Below are positions 5,726 to 45,065 of a stretch of DNA of 64,000 nt, in pieces. The stretch lies in the IMG/VR virus record IMGVR_UViG_3300035208_006553, positions 44,380-108,379 of that record. One strand, written 5' to 3'. Every line of letters begins with the position of its first letter. The stretch's first letter is position 1. Source of the DNA: a virus. Its lineage: Duplodnaviria > Caudoviricetes. The notes below the pieces were generated by a model that was not told where the DNA came from, did no database searches, and was given only the letters and a program-made list of their open reading frames with translations. A program made the translations under genes and the position numbers.

Positions 5726-6778
5726 ATGGCAAAAGGTCAAGAAGTAGAACATACAAAATTCAAAGTTATTGAGGATGCTATTTCAAGTATTGAAAAACAA
5801 TACGGAAAAGGTACTATAATGAGATTAGGAGATAAACCTAATCACGATATAAAAGTAATATCTACTGGATGTTTATCTCTTGATTTTGCATTAGGTGTTG
5901 GAGGAGTTCCAAGAGGAAGAATAATTGAGATATATGGCCCCGAAAGCGGGGGAAAAACGAGTATGAGCCTTCATATTGTTGCTGAATGTCAAAAAAGAGG
6001 AGGTACTGCTGCGTTTATTGATGTGGAGCACGCGCTAGACAAAAAATATGCAAAGAAACTAGGAGTAGATACTGACAATTTATTACTATCTCAACCCGAT
6101 TTTGCAGAACAAGCATTAGAGGTAGTTGAAACACTTGTAAGAACTAATGCAATTGATATTATTGTTGTTGATTCTGTGTCTGCATTAGTACCTCGTTCGG
6201 AAGTTGAAGGAAATATGGGAGATCCTCAAATGGCTTCTCAAGCACGCTTAATGTCTCAAGCTCTCAGAAAATTAACACCTGTTGTTGCAAAAGCTAATTG
6301 TGTTGTAATTTTTATTAATCAAATTCGTATGAAAGTGGGAATGATATTCGGGAGTCCCGAAACTACTTCCGGCGGCAATGCTCTTAAATTTTATGCTTCA
6401 GTTAGATTAGATGTAAGGAAGGTGTCTGCAATAAAGGTTGGAGATTTAATAATTGGTAATAAAACTAAAATTAAGGTTGTTAAAAACAAATGCGCTCCTC
6501 CCTTCCGTGAGGTTCAAGTTGATATTATTTTTGGACAAGGAATTGATACAGTAGGAGACATAATTGACTTAGCTATTCAATTTGGATTAATTAAAAAGTC
6601 TGGGTCTTGGTTTACGTACGGAGAGGATAGGTTTCAAGGAAAAGAAGGTATATCAAAAGCTTTAAAGAGTAATTCTATTTTTGTAGAGAATTTGAGAACT
6701 CAATTAGTTAATATACTAAACAATCCTGAAATTACAGAAATTATACCTTCAACAGAAAATACTGAATTGCCGGAGTAA
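5726..6778 (+). CDS. recA: Recombinase RecA
   Basis: [61 protein letters not shown]. Confidence 0.98.
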
Positions 6779-14237: not shown

Positions 14238-15176
14238 ATGATAATAGGATATGTAACAGATACCCATCTTCGATCAGAAACACCGGAAGGCAGAATAGAT
14301 AATTTTAATAACTCTATTCTTACTAAAATGGAAGAGGTGGGTCAGATTTTTAGAGAAGAAAAATGTGATATAATTCTTCATGGAGGTGATTGGGGTGATA
14401 GACCTGATATTCCTTACAGTGTTTATAATGAATTAGTAGGAGCTTTAAAAGCATGGAATAAACCCATTTACGGAATAATAGGAAGTCATGATTATTATGG
14501 GTATCAGATTAAAAGTTTGAAAAGGACTGCAGTAGGAGCTTTATACAAATCAGGTATAATTGAATTAGTTGGCAGCGAAGGTATGAAAGAATATATCGAA
14601 TTAGATGATATTTGCATTTGTGGAACTCCTCATACGTACTGGTTAGATGAAGATTCTAAAAATTATTACAAAGAAAACTATTCTAGTAAAATTCAAATAC
14701 AACTAACTCATGGAATGCTTCTAGAAAAGCCTGCAATCTTTCAACACACTTTACTTACTAATATAGAAACAAAATCTCAATATCTTTTAGGAGCTCATTA
14801 CCATCCTGGCTGGAGTCAATTGTTTTTTAATTTAAAAGGAACAACATTTATTCATCCAGGAGGGTTAGCTAGATTAGACAATACAGGAAAAGTGAGAATT
14901 CCAAAAGCGGTAATTATTAATTCAGTTACTCAAGAAGTCTATAGTAAAGAATTGCAAACAGCTATAGTACACCCATTTAAAGAAAAGGTAACAGATTCTA
15001 AAGAAGAAATAACAATGAATTTAGTAAAAAGAGCACTAGATTATCTTAAAGATACTCAAGTAAGTGTGATAGATATTAAACAACAACTTCCACTTATTGC
15101 AAATAAATTTAAGTATAATTCAGAAATCGTAGATTTAGCTTTTAATTTAATTGAAGAAGCAGAAAAGGAGAAATAA
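14238..15176 (+). CDS. sbcD: Mre11/SbcD-like nuclease (gp47-like)
   Basis: TDTH, HGGDWGD, GSHD, LTHG, GAHYH, HPG metallophosphoesterase motifs next to SbcC halves. Confidence 0.88.
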   Translation: MIIGYVTDTHLRSETPEGRIDNFNNSILTKMEEVGQIFREEKCDIILHGGDWGDRPDIPYSVYNELVGALKAWNKPIYGIIGSHDYYGYQIKSLKRTAVGALYKSGIIELVGSEGMKEYIELDDICICGTPHTYWLDEDSKNYYKENYSSKIQIQLTHGMLLEKPAIFQHTLLTNIETKSQYLLGAHYHPGWSQLFFNLKGTTFIHPGGLARLDNTGKVRIPKAVIINSVTQEVYSKELQTAIVHPFKEKVTDSKEEITMNLVKRALDYLKDTQVSVIDIKQQLPLIANKFKYNSEIVDLAFNLIEEAEKEK

Positions 15177-17080: not shown

Positions 17081-17785
17081 TTGATTGATCTATTAATTAG
17101 TTACAACGAACATCTTAATAAAGTCAATCAAACATTACAACGCCAAATAGGACAGAGAGATGTTTTGTTGCAAAATCAAAAAGAGAGTGAGAAAAAAGAA
17201 GCAAATGTTATAAACTTGCTTGGTAACATTTCAAAAGCTAAATTGTTATTAGAAATGGTAGTAAGGAGTACTGAAATAAGGGTAAAATCTTATATTGAAC
17301 CTTTCGTAACTGAAGCACTAGATTTCATTTTTAATCAAAATTTAAAATTTCATATAGTATTTATTGATAGAAGAGGACAAATAGAAGTAGATTTTATTGT
17401 ACTTCCTTCTAATAAGGTAGAAGAAGATTACCAAACTTACTTAAATGATGTAGTAACTTACGAACAAGAATTTGATCAGTTAGTAAAAATATACAGAAAT
17501 ATTAATTACTTTTATGGAGGAGCTGTTCAGGAAATATTAGGTGTAGTATTGAGATTAGTAATGATAGAATTATTACAAATAAAAGGACCTGTGTGTTTAG
17601 ATGAACCTACATCTAGTTTTCACGAGCAGTATGCAGCACGTGTTGGTGTATTTATTAAATCATTAAGTGAAAGGTTTAATAGACAAATTATATATGTTAC
17701 ACACAGTCATGCTTTAGCTGCTGCTGCTAATAAAGTATACGAAGTGAAAAAAGACAGGGGTATCAGTAGAGTAGAGGAAATTTAA
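17081..17785 (+). CDS. sbcC: Rad50/SbcC C-terminal half
   Basis: Coiled coil, degenerate signature YGGAVQ, Walker B/D-loop CLDEPTS, H-loop YVTH. Confidence 0.85.
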   Translation: MIDLLISYNEHLNKVNQTLQRQIGQRDVLLQNQKESEKKEANVINLLGNISKAKLLLEMVVRSTEIRVKSYIEPFVTEALDFIFNQNLKFHIVFIDRRGQIEVDFIVLPSNKVEEDYQTYLNDVVTYEQEFDQLVKIYRNINYFYGGAVQEILGVVLRLVMIELLQIKGPVCLDEPTSSFHEQYAARVGVFIKSLSERFNRQIIYVTHSHALAAAANKVYEVKKDRGISRVEEI

Positions 17786-19147: not shown

Positions 19148-19333
19148 ATGTATCAGTCTGATAATATAAAAAATAAATTTAGATTAAAAATATTTTTATT
19201 GTTGAAGAAAAATACAGATCAATTTTTAGAAACAAAAAATGAATTAATAAAGAAAAATGTATTAAGACGGATAAACAAATTATTAGACTGTATTTATTTA
19301 TTTATTAAATCTAAAAGAATTAGTTTAAGCTAA
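19148..19333 (+). CDS. Small basic protein, paralog of the loop-encoded ORF at 22749
   Basis: RLKIFLLLKKNTD...RRINKLL.CIYL shared with 22749..22919. Confidence 0.6.
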   Translation: MYQSDNIKNKFRLKIFLLLKKNTDQFLETKNELIKKNVLRRINKLLDCIYLFIKSKRISLS

Positions 19334-19855
19334 TTTGAGGATACAATGAACCAAGAACTAAACAAAATAATAAGCGATTTAGAATATGCTGCTTATAATT
19401 TATGTAACGGCAAAAAAGATACAGATTTACCGCCGGGAATAATTAACTCTACTGGCGCAGAGGATTCTCTTTTAATTGCTATACGTGATTTGAAAGAGAT
19501 AACCAATCGCCACGAACCGCTAGTTAGCGGGAAACTTGCGGACTTTACAGTTTCTGAGCTAATGATAAAAATGAATGAAATTATCGGACAATATCCAGTG
19601 CAAGGTAATTATGCAGATGATGGAAGATATACTTACCCCGGTAGATGGAATGCTTTACTTAAATACATAAAAGAAAAATGAAAACAGTGATTACTAAAAA
19701 CGGAAATCTTGCTTGTAACATTACAAGTGACGAATTGGAACAAATTAAAGAAGATTTGCGACCGACAACAAGACGCAATGATTCTCTATACGAAATATTT
19801 AAGCAAATAGCAGAAGAAGATAAAAAGGTGAATCCAGAACTTTACGAAGATACTA

Positions 19856-20070
19856 CCCGCTAATAATTACAACGAAACGATGTGACGGTTAATTTAACAC
19901 GAACATAAAAGAAGAAATAATGGATTTAAACCAACTTTATATTGAAAATTGTGAGGGCTTTGACGAGTATATGCCCGATGGTTCTTGCCGAAACGGATTG
20001 CGAATGACACTTGATGGATTTCAAAATGCACTAAGAAAATTGAGTGGTCAAATTGAACCGCAAGTTATAA
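19856..20070. repeat. attC-like site (decayed left arm)
   Basis: CCCGCTAAT complements GTTAGCGGG at 19523; right arm ...ATTGAACCGCAA-GTTATAA with GTT at 20064. Confidence 0.6.
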
Positions 20071-20620
20071 AGCAAACGGCGGAAGCAATAAGAGAACTTT
20101 TACAGTTAGCACAAGCAACCCATACTTATTGTGAGGATGGTTATTATAGTTGCCCGAAAGCTGAAGGTGGATGCTATAATGGTGCTTATAAAGAAGATGA
20201 ATGTAATTGCGGTGCAGACAAACAAAACGAACGAGTTACAGAATTAAAAACAATTTTAATGAATGATAGACGTTTGACGTTGTAGAAAAGAAGTATTAGC
20301 ATGGGCTTTGAAAGTACAAAATGAAGAAAGCATACATCCTTTTGATGTGGTATCAAGTTCTAAATCTGATAATTGGAAATTTTATTAATAGTATATGTTT
20401 TATAAATGTAAAAGAAAGTAGTTAAAAGTTAACTTAAATACTGTAATTTTATGTTGAAAATAAAAGAATTTCATAGAAGATACTTCTTGATTTATTGTAT
20501 CCTTTATTACATATTGTAGTTGTAAGAATTATAAAAATAATCAGGAGAAAAAAAAATGGATGCATCAACTTACAAAAACACACCAACAAAATTAAATATT
20601 CTAGAACAAGAAGTAAAACA

Positions 20621-20818
20621 ATATAGCGGAAATGCGTTTAGCCGGACACGGGAATTTAATAAAATAAATTTGAGGTTGATATGAAAGATTACCAAGTAAC
20701 AATAGACTTAGCAAAAAACATTTGAACATGGAAGAGGTTGACCCCGATGTATGGGCTGCAGACGTGGCAAAGCTCATACGAATAATTGAAAGTATTCCAG
20801 CTGAAACGCTGATTAGGC
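20621..20818. repeat. attC-like site (both cores mutated: TAGC / ATT)
   Basis: Left GCGTTTAGCCGGACAC pairs with right GTATTCCAGCTGAAACGC; loop start nearly identical to the site at 22015. Confidence 0.7.
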
Positions 20819-21036
20819 GAGGGCGTTCTTTGCCCGATGTGGCTTGCGGTAATTGTAAACAAATAGAGTTTTGGTATATGAAAATAAAAATCCAAGACGA
20901 ATGGATGGACGGAGTAAGCGGGGAATATAATTTTGTTAAACAATACTGCGATGCAATTACTGACCACGACTGGAAAATAATAAAAGTTACACAGTATAGA
21001 GGCGACAAGGAAGAAGAAATTGAAAGCAAGCCATCT

Positions 21037-21227
21037 GCCTAACGGCTGAGCCATAACCCGCCGAGCGGGAATTGAAAACTAAAATAGGAATTGAAAAATG
21101 AAAAACATTAACGATTGGATAACAGAAAATTTTCTTGCAAGCGAGAGAGAAAATAAATTAAATGATCTTAAAGAAATAATTTTATCCGACCGAGCAAGCG
21201 AGGTCGGTGTTAATGGCATCGTTATGC
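21037..21227. repeat. attC-like site
   Basis: GCCTAAC-GGCTGA-GCCATAACCCGCC ... GGTCGGTGTTAATGGC-ATC-GTTATGC. Confidence 0.8.
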
Positions 21228-21556
21228 CGAAAATTGGTGAACCGGCACTTAGTAACTGGACATTGGTTTGCAACTTGTTAGATGAGTTTCTGCAAGCTAA
21301 TCGCCACGAAGTTTTTGTTATAGCGAGTGAGCATACCGAAGGTAGCTCTGCGAACGGTGCGGTTGCGGACGTACAGGAGTTGTTAAGGGCAATAAGAGAT
21401 TTAGACCAAAGGGAAAGGTTGGTTCTCACTATGTATTACAACGAAAAATTAACGTTAAAAGAAATTGCATCTATCTTTGATTGGACGATTGACGCAACAC
21501 AAAAACAGTTTGAAAATATTATAAACAAACTAAAGATAGCAACCGCATCGCTATAA
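21098..21556 (+). CDS. Chimeric cassette ORF with C-terminal sigma-70 region 4 HTH (FliA/WhiG-like)
   Basis: AIRDLDQRERLVLTMYYNEKLTLKEIA; crosses two att right arms in frame; stop codon lies in the TAAC core. Confidence 0.75.
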   Translation: MKNINDWITENFLASERENKLNDLKEIILSDRASEVGVNGIVMPKIGEPALSNWTLVCNLLDEFLQANRHEVFVIASEHTEGSSANGAVADVQELLRAIRDLDQRERLVLTMYYNEKLTLKEIASIFDWTIDATQKQFENIINKLKIATASL

Positions 21557-21681
21557 CGTAGTTGCGGCTAAACTGCACCGACATAGGAAAAAATAATTAA
21601 ATGAATTATAAATTCACGCATATCATCAAATGCGAAAATCTAAGACACCGTAAGGTGTCAGATTTGAGCCGCTGGTTATGT
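21551..21681. repeat. attC-like site
   Basis: CTATAAC-GTAGTT-GCGGCTAAACTGCACC ... GGTGTCAGATTTGAGCCGC-TG-GTTATGT. Confidence 0.85.
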
Positions 21682-21691
21682 GGAAAATTTT

Positions 21692-21774
21692 GGAAGGTTG
21701 CGAGCAATGGCGCTCAAGCGGTCTTGAAAACCGTGCTATCGGCAACGATAAGGGTTCGATTCCTTAACCTTCCG
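21692..21774 (+). tRNA. tRNA-Ser (anticodon TGA)
   Basis: Acceptor GGAAGGT/ACCTTCC plus G discriminator, anticodon arm GCGGT-CTTGAAA-ACCGT, long variable arm, T-loop GTTCGATTC. Confidence 0.88.
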
Positions 21775-21910
21775 CTAGGTCGAGTTCGATTCTCGATGGG
21801 TTACTGACATGCTGGTGCGAATGGAGTTAGGTTCGATTCCTAATGATTACGGTCTTAGAAATAAGATAACTCTGAGAGCTGAGTATGACAGCCGGGAAAG
21901 ACCGGCGAAT

Positions 21911-21993
21911 GGAAGATTGGCAGAGTGGTAATGCAACGGCTTGCTAAGCCGCACAACAGAAATGTTGCAGAGGTTCGATCCCTCTATCTTCCG
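21911..21993 (+). tRNA. tRNA-Ser (anticodon GCT)
   Basis: Acceptor GGAAGAT/ATCTTCC plus G, D-loop AGTGGTA, anticodon arm CGGC-TTGCTAA-GCCG, long variable arm, T-loop GTTCGATCC. Confidence 0.9.
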
Positions 21994-22014
21994 CAAGATG
22001 CGAAAAATTTTTCC

Positions 22015-22219
22015 ACATAACGGAGTTGCCCATAAGCGGACACGGAAATTTAATAAATAAATTTGAGGTTACAAATGCAAGACGAAAAATTAAACGAAAT
22101 TAAAAGACGGATAGATGTTACTTACCAGGGGGACAGAAATCTTGCCGTAATGTTACAAGATGTTATTTATCTCTATAAAAAACTGGAAGAAAGTGTTCCG
22201 CTTGATGGGCTGGTTATGA
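22015..22219. repeat. attC-like site
   Basis: ACATAAC-GGAGTT-GCCCATAAGCGGACAC ... GTGTTCCGCTTGATGGGC-TG-GTTATGA. Confidence 0.85.
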
Positions 22220-22368
22220 CGCAAGCCGACTACTTAAAAGAAATTGAGACAGCCATAGAAAACACAGTTAATGAATATGACCATATATTAAATATGAAGC
22301 GATACCCGCAAGTTGAAGATATGGAAAAGTGGATTAGGAATTTGAGAGAAGCCATACAACCATTTTAG
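22063..22368 (+). CDS. Cassette ORF, hypothetical (likely ATG at 22075)
   Basis: Starts in att loop after GAGG RBS; crosses GTT at 22213 as Val. Confidence 0.65.
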   Translation: MRLQMQDEKLNEIKRRIDVTYQGDRNLAVMLQDVIYLYKKLEESVPLDGLVMTQADYLKEIETAIENTVNEYDHILNMKRYPQVEDMEKWIRNLREAIQPF

Positions 22369-22376
22369 GCTTGTCG

Positions 22377-22508
22377 GTATAACGGATCAGCGACAACCCG
22401 CAAGCGGTAGTTTAATAAAAACTAAATTGATAAAGGAATGATATATGAAAACAAAGAAAAATAAACCGACAAGCGATAGCGCAGTCGGCGTTGGTTGCGT
22501 AGTTAGTT
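22377..22508. repeat. attC-like site
   Basis: GTATAAC-GGATCA-GCGACAACCCGC ... GTCGGCGTTGGTTGC-GTA-GTTAGTT. Confidence 0.8.
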
Positions 22509-22720
22509 TGCCGAACGAAATTTTGATAGAGGTTGAAGGCAGACAAAAAAGAGTTTTAACGAAAGATTATGTAACCGCAAAGACTAAACAATTGCAAGAA
22601 TTTGGTTACACAAAATTAACAGAAGAAGAAGTTTCTTCTGAATTACAAAATATATTAAGCAATAAACCGCTTAATGTTATTGGGATGTTTATGAAAGATG
22701 ACATCGTGAGGTCAAACTAA
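22445..22720 (+). CDS. Cassette ORF, hypothetical
   Basis: Starts in att loop after AAGGA; crosses GTT at 22502 as Val; stop in next TAAC core. Confidence 0.7.
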   Translation: MKTKKNKPTSDSAVGVGCVVSLPNEILIEVEGRQKRVLTKDYVTAKTKQLQEFGYTKLTEEEVSSELQNILSNKPLNVIGMFMKDDIVRSN

Positions 22721-22925
22721 CGTAGTTGAAACTAAAGCGTGAGCGAACATGGAAGACCAATTGAGAGTAAAGATATTTTTATTGTTGAAGGAAAATACGG
22801 ATTTGTTCTTAACAACAAATAATAAATTAATAAGAAGAAACTCATTGAGGCGAATAAACAAATTATTGACCTGTATTTATCTATTGAACTTAAAAGAGCG
22901 AATCGCTTTGAGTTTTTAGTTATAA
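22715..22925. repeat. attC-like site with a complete 56 aa ORF (22749..22919) in its loop
   Basis: AACTAAC-GTAGTT-GAAACTAAAGCG ... CGCTTTGAGTTTT-TA-GTTATAA. Confidence 0.8.
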
Positions 22926-22950
22926 ATTTTTTGGCGGAAGGAGCAAGACA

Positions 22951-23136
22951 ATGAAAATTATATTAGTACCACATTGTAAAAAATGCCCTCACGGTGCGCA
23001 ATGGAATTTAGAAGGAACTGAATATATGTGTGGAAAGAAAACAAAAATTAATTCTGATAAAAATATACCGGAATGGTGCCCTTTGATGGAAGCAACGGAG
23101 TTCTTAAGAAAGGTTAATAGCCAAAAACAATTATAA
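22951..23136 (+). CDS. Cassette ORF, small Cys-rich protein
   Basis: CxxCP...C...IPEWCPL; own GGAG RBS; stop in TAAC core. Confidence 0.7.
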   Translation: MKIILVPHCKKCPHGAQWNLEGTEYMCGKKTKINSDKNIPEWCPLMEATEFLRKVNSQKQL

Positions 23137-23415
23137 CGTGGCGCGGGCTTACCCGTTTGCGGTGAATGAAAAACTAAATTAGGAGAAACAACAATGATAG
23201 GTTTTAACAGAGTAGCAAAATTTGATGATGGCAGATTGATGTATAGAAATATAATAACTAACGACTATACAAGGCTCTCTTTTGTGTATAGGGACGACAT
23301 TAAATATAAACCTTACCCAACTATGCAAATAACTTGTACAGGGTGGAGTTTTAGCTGGTGGAGGTTTTGGGTATGGCACGAAAAGAAGCAAATCAGGCTG
23401 AAACGCTAGTTAGCC
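23131..23415. repeat. attC-like site with partly mismatched (hybrid) arms
   Basis: TTATAAC-GTGGCG-CGGGCTTACCCGTTTGC ... GCAAATCAGGCTGAAACGC-TA-GTTAGCC; loop ORF 23194..23409 ends at the core. Confidence 0.65.
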
Positions 23416-23566
23416 AAGCCGCTTCTCGGGCGGTGTTGCTTGCGGAAATGAGAGAAGGATTACGAATAGCAATGAATAATTGGAAACGCTGTTATTATGG
23501 ATATGGGAAAGAAGTTATGAAAGAAACAAGCGAAGAAACTTTGGCTAATTTACATTTAGATGATGA

Positions 23567-24031
23567 GTGGAGTGGATTAAATTAAACAAAACACAAAGCG
23601 TGTTAATGAAAATGAGCGAAGGTAATCCCGGAGCTTTAACAACGATGATGCAAATAATGATGGAACACGATAATATTGATCCGCAGGCGATGATGGGTGG
23701 AATGGGTGTGATATTATTATTTGACACATTCCAAATTTATGGCTCATCAATTTATATTTTGTTCAACGACCAATGTAACAGGGATGTGAGGGAGTTATTG
23801 ATGCTAATGAGAGCTACGCAACTTGGGTTATTCAGTAGTCGCAACCTTAAACAGATTGCCGATGACCAAATGGGAAAACATTTATTAAGCAAAGAGCAGA
23901 TGGATGAACTTGATAAAAAAGTATGTGAGCAATTAGAACAATTTACAACCAGAGAAGCGTGGGAGAACGCAAAGAAGCATCCGTATAACGGATCTCCGTT
24001 TGTGCCGGTTGCGACATTAATTAAAAAATAG
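23567..24031 (+). CDS. Hypothetical phage protein
   Basis: MSEGNPGA...D...IYGSSIYILFND.C; contains an att left arm (GTATAAC 23983) read through out of frame. Confidence 0.65.
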   Translation: MEWIKLNKTQSVLMKMSEGNPGALTTMMQIMMEHDNIDPQAMMGGMGVILLFDTFQIYGSSIYILFNDQCNRDVRELLMLMRATQLGLFSSRNLKQIADDQMGKHLLSKEQMDELDKKVCEQLEQFTTREAWENAKKHPYNGSPFVPVATLIKK

Positions 24032-43593: not shown

Positions 43594-44968
43594 TTGTCCG
43601 CACGAATTGCTTGTTTTATGCTTTTGCGGACGTAAATAAAAGGAGAAATAAAACGACACTAGAGAGATTTGAAGAAATATTTGACAACACAGAAAGCGAC
43701 CACAAACGACAAAGTAAGATATTTAAGGGACTTGAAATAATAAGAAAATATTTACCAGATGCTGATATTGAAGCTGCTGAACACGATATTATTTATGCGG
43801 CTGATGTAGATGAATTAATAGAGGCGGGCATAACAGAAGATGATGTAAAAGAACTGGCTAAATTAACTTGGCATATTGATGAGGATGCTTTGGCGCACTT
43901 TGCGTGATAGTTTGCAATAAACATAACATAAACTTGAGGTCTTTTTGATTTGCTGATTAAACCGTGAGAAGTGAACATGGATAATATTATGAATTATGGA
44001 CTAACATTTTATTGTGTGTTAGGGAAATGGAGTAAACCAAAAATACAGTGGATGAAAGCAACGAGAAGTTTGAGAATATGTTTAGGATTTGTTGCCATAA
44101 AAATTGGGTTGTATGATTTAGAAAGATGGGAAAAGAAAGTTTTAATTGCATATATAAAAACAACTGATAGCGACGAGTCGGTTTAACAAATTAATGGAGT
44201 GAAAATGTTTAGCAAGATTGAAAGATTAAAAAGAAAAGCTAAAAAGTATTACCAAGAATACAACCGAATACTTGATGGAATGGATTGCGGAGTAACATTA
44301 GCGTTGCAAATATCTTCCCGGTTGAGCATAGCGAAAACTAATTTCAACAATACTTTAGATGAATTGGCAAAGATCGATCCGCAATGTACCACGAAGAGAC
44401 TATGATAGTCAAAAACATGCATAACTGATCAGCGATTAAACGCACCGGGCATAAAAAGAGAGATTAAAAGTATAATTAACATATTAAACAATAAAATAGC
44501 CGCACAAAAGATAGGTGCCGTTCTTGATTATGTAGTTAGTTTTTGAGGAGCGAAAATATGCAATTACATCCAGCAACATTAATTCTATTGGATAAAGAGG
44601 ATATTATAGATGCTATTAAACAAGCAATTTATAAAGAATATCCAGAGTTTAGATCAACATACAATATTATCATTGATACGAAATTGGAAAGAGTAGAAGT
44701 AAGAGCAATTTGTTATACGCCCGTTAAAAAGGCAAATGATAGCGACGAGTAAAACTAACAGAGTTGGTTTTAAAGGGTTTTACGGAATAAACACTAAAAT
44801 AAAATTGAGGTAAAAATGTTAAAATGTAATAACAAATTTTGCTATAATAATTCAATAGCTGGATGTTCACTTGAGTTTGAAACACAAACTGATTGCGATA
44901 CATATAATGACTATAATGAAAGCAACCTTGTTGAAAACCGAGTTAGCCAAGCCGCTTCTCGGGCGGTG
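43594..44968. mobile_element. Array 2 of attC-like gene cassettes (partly decayed)
   Basis: ATTAAACCG(43956)/CGGTTTAAC(44179); GTTAGTTTT(44535)/AAAACTAAC(44751); full sites at 44419..44541 and 44753..44948. Confidence 0.72.
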
Positions 44969-45065
44969 CAAGCCGCCGAAAATTTAGAACAAAAGATTAA
45001 AGAGTTTGCAGACATACGCGGATTAAAGTGTTCAAAAACTTTGAAAAGTTCCTGGAGGGGTTAAT

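Follow-up and report, generated by a model that had tools for sequence, protein, structure and literature searches.

Can a DNA recombination site also supply the beginning of a gene? This question is raised by a locus in a 64,000-nucleotide stretch of DNA (hereafter the window) from a tailed-phage record of the class Caudoviricetes (IMGVR_UViG_3300035208_006553, positions 44,380 to 108,379). At 19.3-24.0 kb the window carries an integron-like island of small gene cassettes, accompanied by a two-unit satellite at 44.4-45.1 kb. The original prediction stated that open reading frames start inside the loops of folded att sites and cross the GTT core in one fixed frame, and it proposed that, with crossover at G/TT, any loop-encoded N-terminus could be fused in frame to any incoming cassette body. 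The features of the locus are collected in Table 1.

Table 1. Features of the cassette island and its satellite (window coordinates; L numbers denote related loci and P numbers denote proteins from the comparison set)
Position	Strand	Feature	Details
19346..19864	+	Leftmost, partly decayed unit	ORF 19346..19681 crosses the 3'-arm core GTT 19523 in frame; body 19523-19864 also holds ORF 19678..19863 and ends in a degenerate core (TAAT)
19865..20285	+	Hairpin unit 19865-20063 (ATG 19920) and body from GTT 20064	ORF 19920..20285 has an N-terminal module shared with P0007, P0008 and P0021, and a Cys-rich C-terminal domain that other proteins carry behind other N-termini or without this N-terminal module
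20286..20626	+	AT-rich 341-bp insert	Absent from a landfill contig that joins 20285 to a 5'-arm-like sequence
20624..21043	+	Cassette with both cores mutated (TAGC 20624-20627, ATT 20812)	Stem intact (14 of 16 pairs); body 20812-21043 is 95% identical to L004:3380-3640 behind a different N-terminus; ORF 20722..21042 stops in the TAA of TAAC
21044..21557	+	Cassette c1	Hairpin unit 21044-21220 (ATG 21098), 98.5% identical to L005-L007 with different flanks on both sides; body starts at GTT 21221, with relic 3' arms at 21317 and 21362; ORF 21098..21556 carries sigma-70 region 4 in residues 91-146; its stop is the TAA of TAAC 21554-21557
21558..22021	+	Cassette c2	Hairpin unit 21558-21674; body 21675-22021 holds tRNA-Ser(TGA) and tRNA-Ser(GCT), and its ends form a 17-bp stem; ORF 21601..21807 crosses GTT out of frame and is probably not a gene
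22022..22383	+	Cassette c3	Hairpin unit 22022-22212 with 16 of 16 stem pairs, bulged G and T, and ATG 22075; body 22213-22383; the N-terminal 45 residues of ORF 22075..22368 are identical in P0033, which continues with a different body
22384..22721	+	Cassette c4	Hairpin unit 22384-22501 (ATG 22445); body 22502-22721; ORF 22445..22720 stops in the TAA of TAAC
22722..23137	+	Cassette c5	Hairpin unit 22722-22918 holds a complete 56-aa ORF (22749..22919) that ends in TAG at the core; the unit is 94.7% identical to L005:2604-2809, bounded at TAAC and GTT; body 22919-23137 has its own RBS and ORF 22951..23136
23138..23585	+	Cassette c6	Hairpin unit 23138-23408 holds ORF 23194..23409, which ends in TAG at the core; in-frame ORF 23373..23585 crosses GTT 23409; body end degenerate (TAAT near 23546)
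23986..24030	+	Relic 5' arm (TAAC plus L' arm) without a partner	Inside the 3' end of ORF 23606..24031; right end of the array
44422..45064	+	Second, two-cassette mini-array	TAAC 44422-44425, a weak 3' core near 44535, a body with its own RBS (ORF 44558..44752), then TAAC 44756-44759, a hairpin unit with ATG 44816, GTT 44942 in frame, and ORF 44816..45064; the 27 nt after GTT are identical to 23409-23435

Reading frames across the putative recombination sites

The observation behind the prediction is confirmed. All nine junctions that it listed (GTT at 19523, 20064, 21221, 21317, 22213, 22502, 23409 and 44942, and ATT at 20812) are whole Val or Ile codons of an ATG-started ORF that begins upstream and continues for at least 40 codons downstream. 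Moreover, the two loop-only ORFs (in c5 and c6) end in a TAG whose G is the core G, as had been claimed, and the only out-of-frame read-through, at GTT 21675 with G as the third codon base, leads into the tRNA-Ser unit. The analysis added a further in-frame relic core at 21362, as well as the fact that the 20812 site has both of its cores mutated.

This arrangement is more than chance. In 226 sites from about 70 related viral and metagenome contigs, 123 carry an ATG-started ORF through the core in this frame, against 10 and 13 in the other two frames. In 160 non-redundant hairpin units, 90 have such an ORF; in 89 of those the ATG lies inside the unit, at a median of 55 nt after TAAC, and 75 have a Shine–Dalgarno-like motif, against 7 in a control window. 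However, the fixed frame is partly forced, since the site consensus itself closes the other frames: the conserved bulge motif TTGA gives TGA in one frame in 173 of 226 sites, and TA before GTT gives TAG in the other in 52 of 226. Even so, among sites open in each frame, the frame in which GTT is a codon is read through in 56%, against 25% and 9% for the other two. Most of the related loci were retrieved with one 20-nt body start, so that one body family is over-represented and the contigs are not independent.

The stop codon is the TAA of TAAC in 65 of 100 read-through bodies, and in 29 more ORFs with their own start. Additionally, the codon-position bias of substitutions is 26/15/41 in loop-encoded N-termini and 7/6/32 in bodies.

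Hairpin structure of the sites

The sites are hairpins of the integron attC type, with an AAC/GTT core pair and a covarying stem carrying two bulged bases. In the 160 non-redundant units, TAAC:GTTA pairs occur in 96-100%, and the two-bulge stem is Watson–Crick in 76% of cells (66-89% per pair), against 43% (sd 0.9%) when the arms are permuted, while slid registers and a model without bulges collapse. The base 9 nt before GTT is G in 149 of 160 units and the base 16 nt before GTT is T in 110 of 160, with 6 paired positions between them. This matches the published rule for the integron bottom strand, in which AAC lies on one arm and the bulges opposite, with G at position 16, T at 23/24 and a 6-bp stem between them (PMC5027507). 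The strand that fits this rule is the coding strand; in other words, the genes are written on the strand that classical integrons recombine, and by the integron rule the cut would fall at TAA|C, right after the stop codon.

Other features agree only in part with the published sites or depart from them. Six nucleotides are unpaired after TAAC but only about 2 before GTT, where positions -3 to -5 pair in 70-79% of sites; integron spacers comprise 5-6 unpaired nt on each arm. The family has two size classes, with hairpin units of about 110 and about 180 nt plus boxes (about 125 and 195 nt), and the window's sites measure 123-285 nt from R box to R box, which exceeds the published attC range of 57-141 bp. 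The ends of each body also pair with each other (81% against 38.5% permuted), as 9 bp, a bulged T and then 8 bp, and this 17-bp end-to-end stem has no classical counterpart. G:T and A:C mismatches are equally rare, so the structure is selected as DNA and not as RNA.

At least 8 paired sites lie on one strand between 19.5 and 23.5 kb, and 2 more at 44.4-45.0 kb. No tyrosine recombinase (integrase profile PF00589), serine recombinase or Y1 transposase was found on the 108-kb contig, which is 61% complete, and four of five other viral records also lack a tyrosine recombinase. One Xer-like gene in another record lies 15 kb from its array and scores below the integron-integrase cut-offs. The array corresponds to a CALIN, a cluster of two or more attC sites with no integrase nearby, and not to a complete integron with intI, attI and Pc next to the array.

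Exchange of gene fronts and gene bodies among relatives

Related phages carry the same gene fronts joined in frame to different gene backs. For all three window ORFs searched, no hit other than the window's own protein covers both halves, and the homology break seen in the alignments lies at or near the GTT core. One body is found 100% identical from the G of GTT onward behind three unrelated N-terminal loop modules. Two outcomes that had been named beforehand as refuting the prediction, namely homologs that always keep both halves together and random frame usage in larger sets, were thus not observed.

Breaks occur at both cores. In total, 31 HSP ends lie at TAAC, with right ends at 0 to +2 and most left ends at -3 to -6, and 20 lie at GTT; counted as events, there are 9 against 8, so that TAAC is at least as frequent and a sharper break point. 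A landfill contig joins 21557 (the C of TAAC) to 23142 and consequently lacks four cassettes. Natural homology breaks exactly at TAAC and a variant contig that joins two TAAC sites are only indirect evidence for recombination by an integron integrase at AA|C of the folded bottom strand.

Interpretation of the cassette array

The interpretation favoured here, with moderate confidence, is that the island and its satellite form a phage-borne, CALIN-like array of attC-type sites. Each site is an imperfect DNA hairpin comprising the TAAC/GTTA core pair, an unpaired spacer, a covarying stem of 16 or more bp with the two bulges, and a long terminal loop. In this view, a cassette consists of the C, the 5' arm, a loop holding the RBS, the ATG and the first 20-70 codons, the 3' arm read in frame, the body and the TAA stop, so that the normal unit would be a complete gene with its own 5' att. 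The ORF could leave the hairpin only in the frame where GTT is a codon, and bodies, starting with an in-frame GTT and mostly ending in the TAA of the next core, would be phase-0 modules. Because every cassette reads the conserved 3' arm in the same frame, any exchange at or near GTT would yield an intact chimeric ORF, and such chimeras are seen in relatives.

The hairpin geometry, the frames, the RBS and ATG in loops, the stop in the core, the break points at both cores and the natural chimeras were established directly from sequence. In contrast, it is inferred that recombination by an integron-type enzyme takes place at all, that TAA|C is the main enzymatic crossover, that the loop starts are used for expression, that GTT-side swaps come from less strand-selective att recombination or from short-homology recombination, and that the recombinase comes from elsewhere, either the host or the missing 39% of the genome. 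The nearly equal number of GTT-side and TAAC breaks weighs against this model, since a strictly strand-selective integron enzyme would not give it, as do the absence of a recombinase on the contig, the asymmetric spacer, the length of the sites and the additional stem of the bodies.

The mechanism originally proposed is only partly supported. The predicted outcome exists in nature, but the frame is largely imposed by the att consensus, and the bulges place the integron-type cleavage at TAA|C, which the original prediction had offered as its alternative, with each cassette carrying its own 5' att. Furthermore, in most GTT-side swaps (5 of 6 cases in which the loop is shared and the body differs) both partners share 16-21 identical bases after GTT, so the crossover cannot be placed and homology could explain it; a crossover exactly at G/TT is shown in only a few cases, and short-homology recombination by the phage's own RecA is not excluded.

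The strongest rival is nevertheless this G/TT model or a two-core variant of it, which appears unlikely but possible. Here GTT would itself be a true site-specific crossover point, loop modules and bodies would be separate mobile units, and fusion of any N-terminus to any body would be the normal working mode. The enzyme could be an unselective one that cuts the folded hairpin of either strand, or a Xer-type enzyme acting on double-stranded DNA at two simple sites, R'-spacer-L' and L''-spacer-R''. In its favour, the body of locus L029 is 100% identical to that of L060, and nearly so to that of L015, starting exactly at the G of GTT with unrelated sequence before it. The window's c3 loop is 99.3% identical in L029 but is joined there to a different body, with only about 6 nt shared at the junction, loop units 97-100% identical occur with both flanks unrelated in four cases, and GTT and TAAC breaks are equally frequent. 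The spacers next to both cores are also mismatch hot spots in otherwise near-identical units (35% and 16%, against 2-4% elsewhere), which is what a strand-exchange region between staggered cuts would leave. On the other hand, the bulges sit only on the arm opposite AAC of the coding strand, the geometry that in integrons directs cleavage to one strand only (PMC5027507), the counts are small, and the data set is biased towards one body family. A further-reaching form of this idea, likewise doubtful although not ruled out, regards the att arms as phase-0 splice borders for exon shuffling at the DNA level. If both TAA|C and G|TT were genuine recombinase crossover points, start-and-N-terminus modules and C-terminal bodies would assort independently among phages, continuously creating new small chimeric proteins, many probably counter-defence factors, from a shared environmental pool.

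It is improbable that the elements are not recombinase sites at all but conserved intergenic or 5' gene elements, in the manner of the promoter-stem-loop cassettes of T4-type phages, shuffled only by the phage's homologous recombination at short conserved blocks. The phage does encode RecA (441 bits) and an SbcCD-like pair, with no site-specific recombinase in cis; one variant contig looks like a deletion between two 94%-identical 35-nt loop segments; and loop interiors are sometimes shared while both arms differ (window 21056-21210 against the related loci L008-L010). However, TAAC junctions share only 4-8 nt, which is too little for RecA-type exchange, the arms covary over 100-270 nt with two bulges at the classical attC positions, which homology-driven shuffling does not require, and sigma-70-type promoter matches are not enriched (18 found, 18.6 expected).

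An mRNA role in translation control or processing, with an incidental in-frame GTT, is very unlikely: although the RBS and ATG sit in the loop of a long stem on the transcribed strand and the stems flanking the tRNA pair resemble processing stems, there is no excess of G:U-type over A:C-type mismatches in either stem (32 against 30, and 26 against 35), and homology breaks fall exactly at the cores.

Comparison with known systems

The closest known systems are integron attC sites and CALINs, including the CALINs already reported in virulent phages, which IntI1 recombines (Qi et al. 2023, PMC9892861). The present sites share with them the AAC/GTT core pair, the L-box stem, an unpaired spacer (asymmetric here), the two extrahelical bases on the arm opposite AAC, a variable terminal loop, body ends complementary to each other and the stop codon inside the AAC box, as well as one-directional arrays without an integrase and DNA methyltransferases as recurrent cargo. 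A classical cassette has a promoterless ORF on the top strand, upstream of its attC and expressed from Pc. Here the genes lie on the bottom-strand-like strand, so that the att sits at the 5' end of its gene, its loop carries the RBS, ATG and 20-70 codons, and the ORF reads through the L''/R'' arm; the greater length, the extra stem beyond the R box and the breaks at both cores also differ. Polaribacter phage P12002L, one of the published cases, has none of these sites by the matrices used here.

A translation start inside an att site that serves the following cassette has precedents in ORF-11 and its translation initiation region in attI1, in short ORFs in attC sites, and in aacA4 cassettes that use an upstream start (PMC8876359), where the N-terminus likewise depends on what lies upstream. 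Those are single exceptions or translational coupling, while here an in-frame start in the att loop is the rule for a whole family, and the two halves reassort.

Shufflons and phage tail-fibre multiple-inversion systems (Rci/sfx, Gin, Cin, Min) also use recombination sites inside coding sequence to join one constant N-terminal part to alternative C-terminal parts in a fixed frame. They work by inversion between inverted sites, with a linked recombinase and one target gene, whereas here the sites all point one way, no serine or tyrosine recombinase was found on the contig, and many unrelated genes are involved. Promoter-early stem-loop (PeSL) cassettes of T4-type phages are hyperplastic regions of small genes whose borders carry conserved stem-loop elements that mediate modular shuffling. 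They combine an early promoter with a stem-loop at gene borders; here no promoter enrichment is seen, the elements have attC geometry with bulges, the junctions are exact at 4-nt cores, and the elements overlap coding sequence.

Biological significance

Integrons are understood as devices that move whole, promoterless genes, each followed by its att site. The case makes an open integron question testable, namely what sets strand choice, given that the bulges predict one core while nature shows both, and it shows that attC finders with a length limit will miss such sites. A large family of uncultured phages from groundwater and landfill samples uses the same hairpin chemistry turned round, as judged from sequence: the att site heads the gene, supplies its ribosome-binding site, start codon and first 20-70 codons, and is read through in the one frame that its own consensus leaves open. 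This would give each cassette a built-in translation start and makes every junction frame-compatible, so that natural recombinants with swapped N- and C-terminal halves exist and the sites behave like exon borders at the DNA level. If the GTT-side exchange proves enzymatic, this would be a prokaryotic, DNA-level counterpart of exon shuffling, and it would offer a new way to think about how phages invent small accessory proteins.

Genomic context of the array

The window is bases 44380-108379 of a 108-kb IMG/VR virus record, which is estimated to be 61% complete. It has about 30% G+C, and all long ORFs lie on the + strand. The contig is present in groundwater and landfill samples (runs X1-X7). 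The phage encodes RecA and an SbcCD-like pair, and thus has its own homologous-recombination gear, and it also encodes queuosine-pathway genes. The stretch which carries the array is richer in G+C (34-42%) and is packed with small + strand ORFs and two tRNA-Ser genes. A blastn search of the 19-24 kb stretch against isolated phages hit only tRNA-Ser genes, Rfam found only the tRNA, and a scan for sigma-70 promoters showed no enrichment. Flanking and cassette proteins used as bait in viral contigs found no relatives. The coordinates of the features discussed here are collected in the table.

Coordinates of features in the phage window and in related contigs (L-numbers denote contigs with related arrays)
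Sequence	Position	Feature
Window	5726-6778, 14238-15176, 17081-17785	full RecA (441 bits), a metallophosphoesterase and an SbcC-like ATPase
Window	19.3-24.0 kb	stretch of small + strand ORFs with the array
Window	19148-19333	paralogue (58% identity) of the 56-aa ORF of the c5 loop, just left of the array
Window	19523, 20064, 21221, 21317, 22213, 22502, 23409, 44942	core triplets that are whole codons of ATG-started ORFs
Window	20812	core triplet ATT, a whole codon of an ATG-started ORF
Window	21362	additional in-frame relic core
Window	19920..20285	ORF with an N-terminal module and a Cys-rich C-terminal domain
Window	20286-20626	stretch absent from landfill-metagenome contigs (run X5); one join runs from 20285 into a 5'-arm-like sequence
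Window	20624-20627 and 20812	both cores of one att site, mutated to TAGC and ATT; stem 14 of 16 paired
Window	21098..21556	ORF with a sigma-70 region 4 body
Window	21317-21366	45-50-nt piece bounded by two 3'-arm cores
L003	1470-1519	the recurring 45-50-nt piece
L011	252-308	the recurring 45-50-nt piece
Window	21558-23141	stretch absent from landfill-metagenome contigs (run X5); join from the C of TAAC 21557 to 23142, with 4 different spacer letters
Window	21601..21807	ORF that crosses GTT 21675 out of frame and runs into the tRNA unit
Window	21675-22021	cassette body without a protein gene, with two tRNA-Ser genes (TGA and GCT anticodons), closed by a 17-bp stem between its own ends
Window	22075..22368	ORF of cassette c3
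Window	22749..22919	complete 56-aa ORF inside the c5 loop, ending in a TAG whose G is the core G; 93% copy in L005
Window	23194..23409	ORF ending in a TAG whose G is the core G
Window	23409-23435 and 44942-44968	27 identical bases after GTT in two cassettes 21 kb apart, with unrelated flanks; they include a small G+C hairpin
L027, L014, L049, L031	L027:1580-2323, L014:2119-3354, L049:1831-2403 (-), L031:368-994	N6_N4 DNA methylase, MT-A70 and Mom-like proteins

Reading frames at the junctions

Every junction was re-derived, and the observation made in the original prediction, namely that ORFs start inside att loops and cross the core in one fixed frame, holds. At all nine predicted junctions the core triplet is a whole codon of an ATG-started ORF, and each ORF begins 12-73 codons upstream and runs 40-111 codons on. 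The two ORFs said to stop in a TAG at the core do so, and the out-of-frame read-through into the tRNA unit was also recovered. To these, one more in-frame relic core was added, together with the finding that one att site has both cores mutated while its stem remains largely paired, and it is possibly a cassette fixed in place. The 27-nt element shared by the cores at 23409 and 44942 has no exact match in viral contigs.

Structure of the repeats

Each ORF stop lies in or just before a TAAC, which is followed by a semi-conserved 5' arm. The partner 3' arm and GTTA lie 110-270 nt downstream, and between them sit an A-rich tract, an RBS and an ATG. Using homologues of ORF 21098..21556 and one 20-nt motif, about 70 viral and metagenome contigs were collected with arrays of the same sites, always on one strand. 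Most loci were seeded with one body-start motif. The contigs are not independent, and the counts are small. The 20-mer also gave four hits in prokaryote genome contigs, which is estimated to be near the number expected by chance. The exception is a 31.5-kb contig filed as a Thermoplasmata archaeon MAG (L019 / L049), which carries a real array of the same type and is probably a viral contig placed in the wrong bin.

In 160 non-redundant sites, the arms form a stem of 6 bp, a bulged G, 6 bp, a bulged T (or C), and then at least 4 bp. Cognate arms are Watson-Crick in 76% of cells, against 43% (sd 0.9%) when arms are permuted, while slid registers and a model without bulges fail. G at -9 is present in 149 of 160 sites and T at -16 in 110 of 160. 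The recombined bottom strand of integron attC sites is defined by these same features (Nivina et al. 2016, PMC5027507), which are AAC on one arm, extrahelical bases on the opposite arm, G at position 16, T at 23/24, and a 6-bp stem between them. Counting from the end of a 7-nt GTT box, -9 and -16 are positions 16 and 23. The strand that fits is the coding strand. G:T-type and A:C-type mismatches are equally rare in the stems, so the structure is selected as DNA and not as mRNA.

The two ends of each body (GTT...TAAC) also pair with each other, in 81% against 38.5% when permuted, as 9 bp, a bulged T, and then 8 bp. This is expected if they meet in a circular cassette. The permutation controls for both stems, together with the frame counts, led to the rejection of chance as an explanation.

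The elements are therefore attC-type sites in a CALIN-like array. No tyrosine recombinase, serine recombinase or Y1 transposase was found on the contig, and four of five other viral records also lack a tyrosine recombinase. The one Xer-like gene found lies 15 kb from its array and scores below the integron-integrase cut-offs, and a tblastn search with its protein found nothing in any of the retrieved loci, as distinct from whole metagenome records, or in the window's genome. Single-strand transposition of the IS200/IS605 type was considered and dropped, since there is no Y1 transposase and the units have paired ends rather than subterminal hairpins.

Constraint on the reading frame

The conserved TTGA that holds the bulged G reads TGA in one frame, in 173 of 226 sites, and TA before GTT reads TAG in the other, in 52 of 226 sites. 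The frame with GTT as a codon is closed in only 5 of 226 sites, and the att consensus therefore largely dictates the frame. However, it does not explain everything, because among sites open in each frame an ATG-ORF reads through in 56% (frame 0), 25% and 9%.

The predicted starts look real from the sequence. In 89 of 90 read-through cases the ATG is inside the hairpin unit, at a median of 55 nt after TAAC, and in 75 of 90 an SD-like motif precedes it, against 7 of 90 in a control window. Substitutions between related units favour third codon positions, both in loop-encoded N-termini (26/15/41) and in bodies (7/6/32). At the other end, the stop codon is the TAA of TAAC in 65 of 100 read-through bodies and in 29 further own-start ORFs. 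A body is thus an in-frame module from GTT to TAA.

Positions of exchange

By the integron rule, the cut on this strand is TAA|C. A cassette would then be a complete gene with its own 5' att, which the original prediction had offered as an alternative to a crossover at G/TT. Natural variation agrees in part. Homology between contigs (at least 90% identity) ends or begins at TAAC 31 times, and right ends fall at 0 to +2 and most left ends at -3 to -6, with only 4-8 shared bases. A landfill contig that joins 21557, the C of a TAAC, to 23142 lacks four cassettes. Such joins were read from assembled contigs only, and several with short sides were left out.

GTT is a break point too, with 20 ends. 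A linkage analysis based on 80% clusters could not separate recent exchange from family resemblance of att units and was replaced by a comparison at 93% identity or above, in which 9 breaks at TAAC and 8 at GTT were counted. Hairpin units 97-100% identical occur with both flanks unrelated. Most GTT-side cases cannot be placed exactly, because the partners share 16-21 bases after GTT. In the related contig L029, however, the body is identical to that of contig L060 from the G of GTT on, with unrelated sequence before it, and the same L029 loop is 99.3% identical to the window's c3 loop, whose body is different. The 45-50-nt piece bounded by two 3'-arm cores recurs at 96-98% identity inside three otherwise different ORFs.

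The spacers beside both cores are mismatch hot spots. In 9 pairs of near-identical hairpin units from related loci, the unpaired spacers (positions +1 to +6 after TAAC and -5 to -1 before GTT) differ at 35% and 16% of positions, against 2-4% elsewhere. No explanation was found for this pattern, although it would fit a strand-exchange region.

Homology of the two protein halves

Whether homologues keep both halves of each protein together, and whether frame use is random in a larger set, had been named in advance as the conditions that would refute fusion of loop-encoded N-termini to different bodies, and neither was fulfilled. For all three window ORFs searched, the only hit that covers both halves is the window's own protein. 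In the case of ORF 21098..21556, the homologous proteins P0003 and P0004 share only the loop-encoded N-terminus, P0005 shares only the 45-nt piece between 21317 and 21362, and P0002 shares only the sigma-70 region 4 body. In the case of ORF 19920..20285, the N-terminal module recurs with three other C-termini, and the Cys-rich C-terminal domain recurs behind other N-termini or without this N-terminal module. In the case of ORF 22075..22368, the protein P0033 has the same first 45 residues and then a different body. That body occurs behind three different N-terminal modules, and several N-terminal modules occur with two bodies, always as open frames.

Relation to known phage arrays

CALINs in virulent phages that IntI1 recombines are already published (PMC9892861), but one of those phages, P12002L, has no site of the present family according to position matrices. 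Cargo in relatives is rich in DNA methylases and Mom, as reported for phage CALINs (PMC9892861). The commonest larger cargo in related arrays is N6_N4 DNA methylase, MT-A70 and Mom-like proteins, and at least the methylase of contig L027 starts inside an att loop. In the papers searched, four features were not found described, namely that the gene start and first codons lie inside the att loop as a family rule, that the att consensus fixes the frame, that the bodies are phase-0 modules, and that the halves reassort in nature.

Mechanism

The interpretation given in the original prediction, that crossover at GTT fuses any loop-encoded start in frame to any incoming body, is partly supported. 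While the hairpin geometry, the frames, the break points at both cores and the exchanged halves were shown by the sequence comparisons, the position of the crossover at TAA|C, the activity of any recombinase on these sites and the expression from the loop ATGs are inferred.

The explanation favoured with moderate confidence is an integron-type array read from the recombinogenic strand. In this view, TAA|C is the canonical cassette border, the frame is forced by the att consensus and kept by selection, and GTT-side swaps arise because all cassettes read a conserved arm in one frame.

The main rival, which remains possible but tentative, is that GTT is itself an enzymatic crossover, through an unselective hairpin enzyme or two double-stranded simple sites, so that module shuffling would be the working mode. 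Shuffling by homology only is doubtful, being weakened by the 4-8 nt junctions and the bulge geometry. A role of the hairpins in RNA is very unlikely, given the equal rarity of the two mismatch types in the stems.

In-frame reassortment of gene fronts and backs is real.
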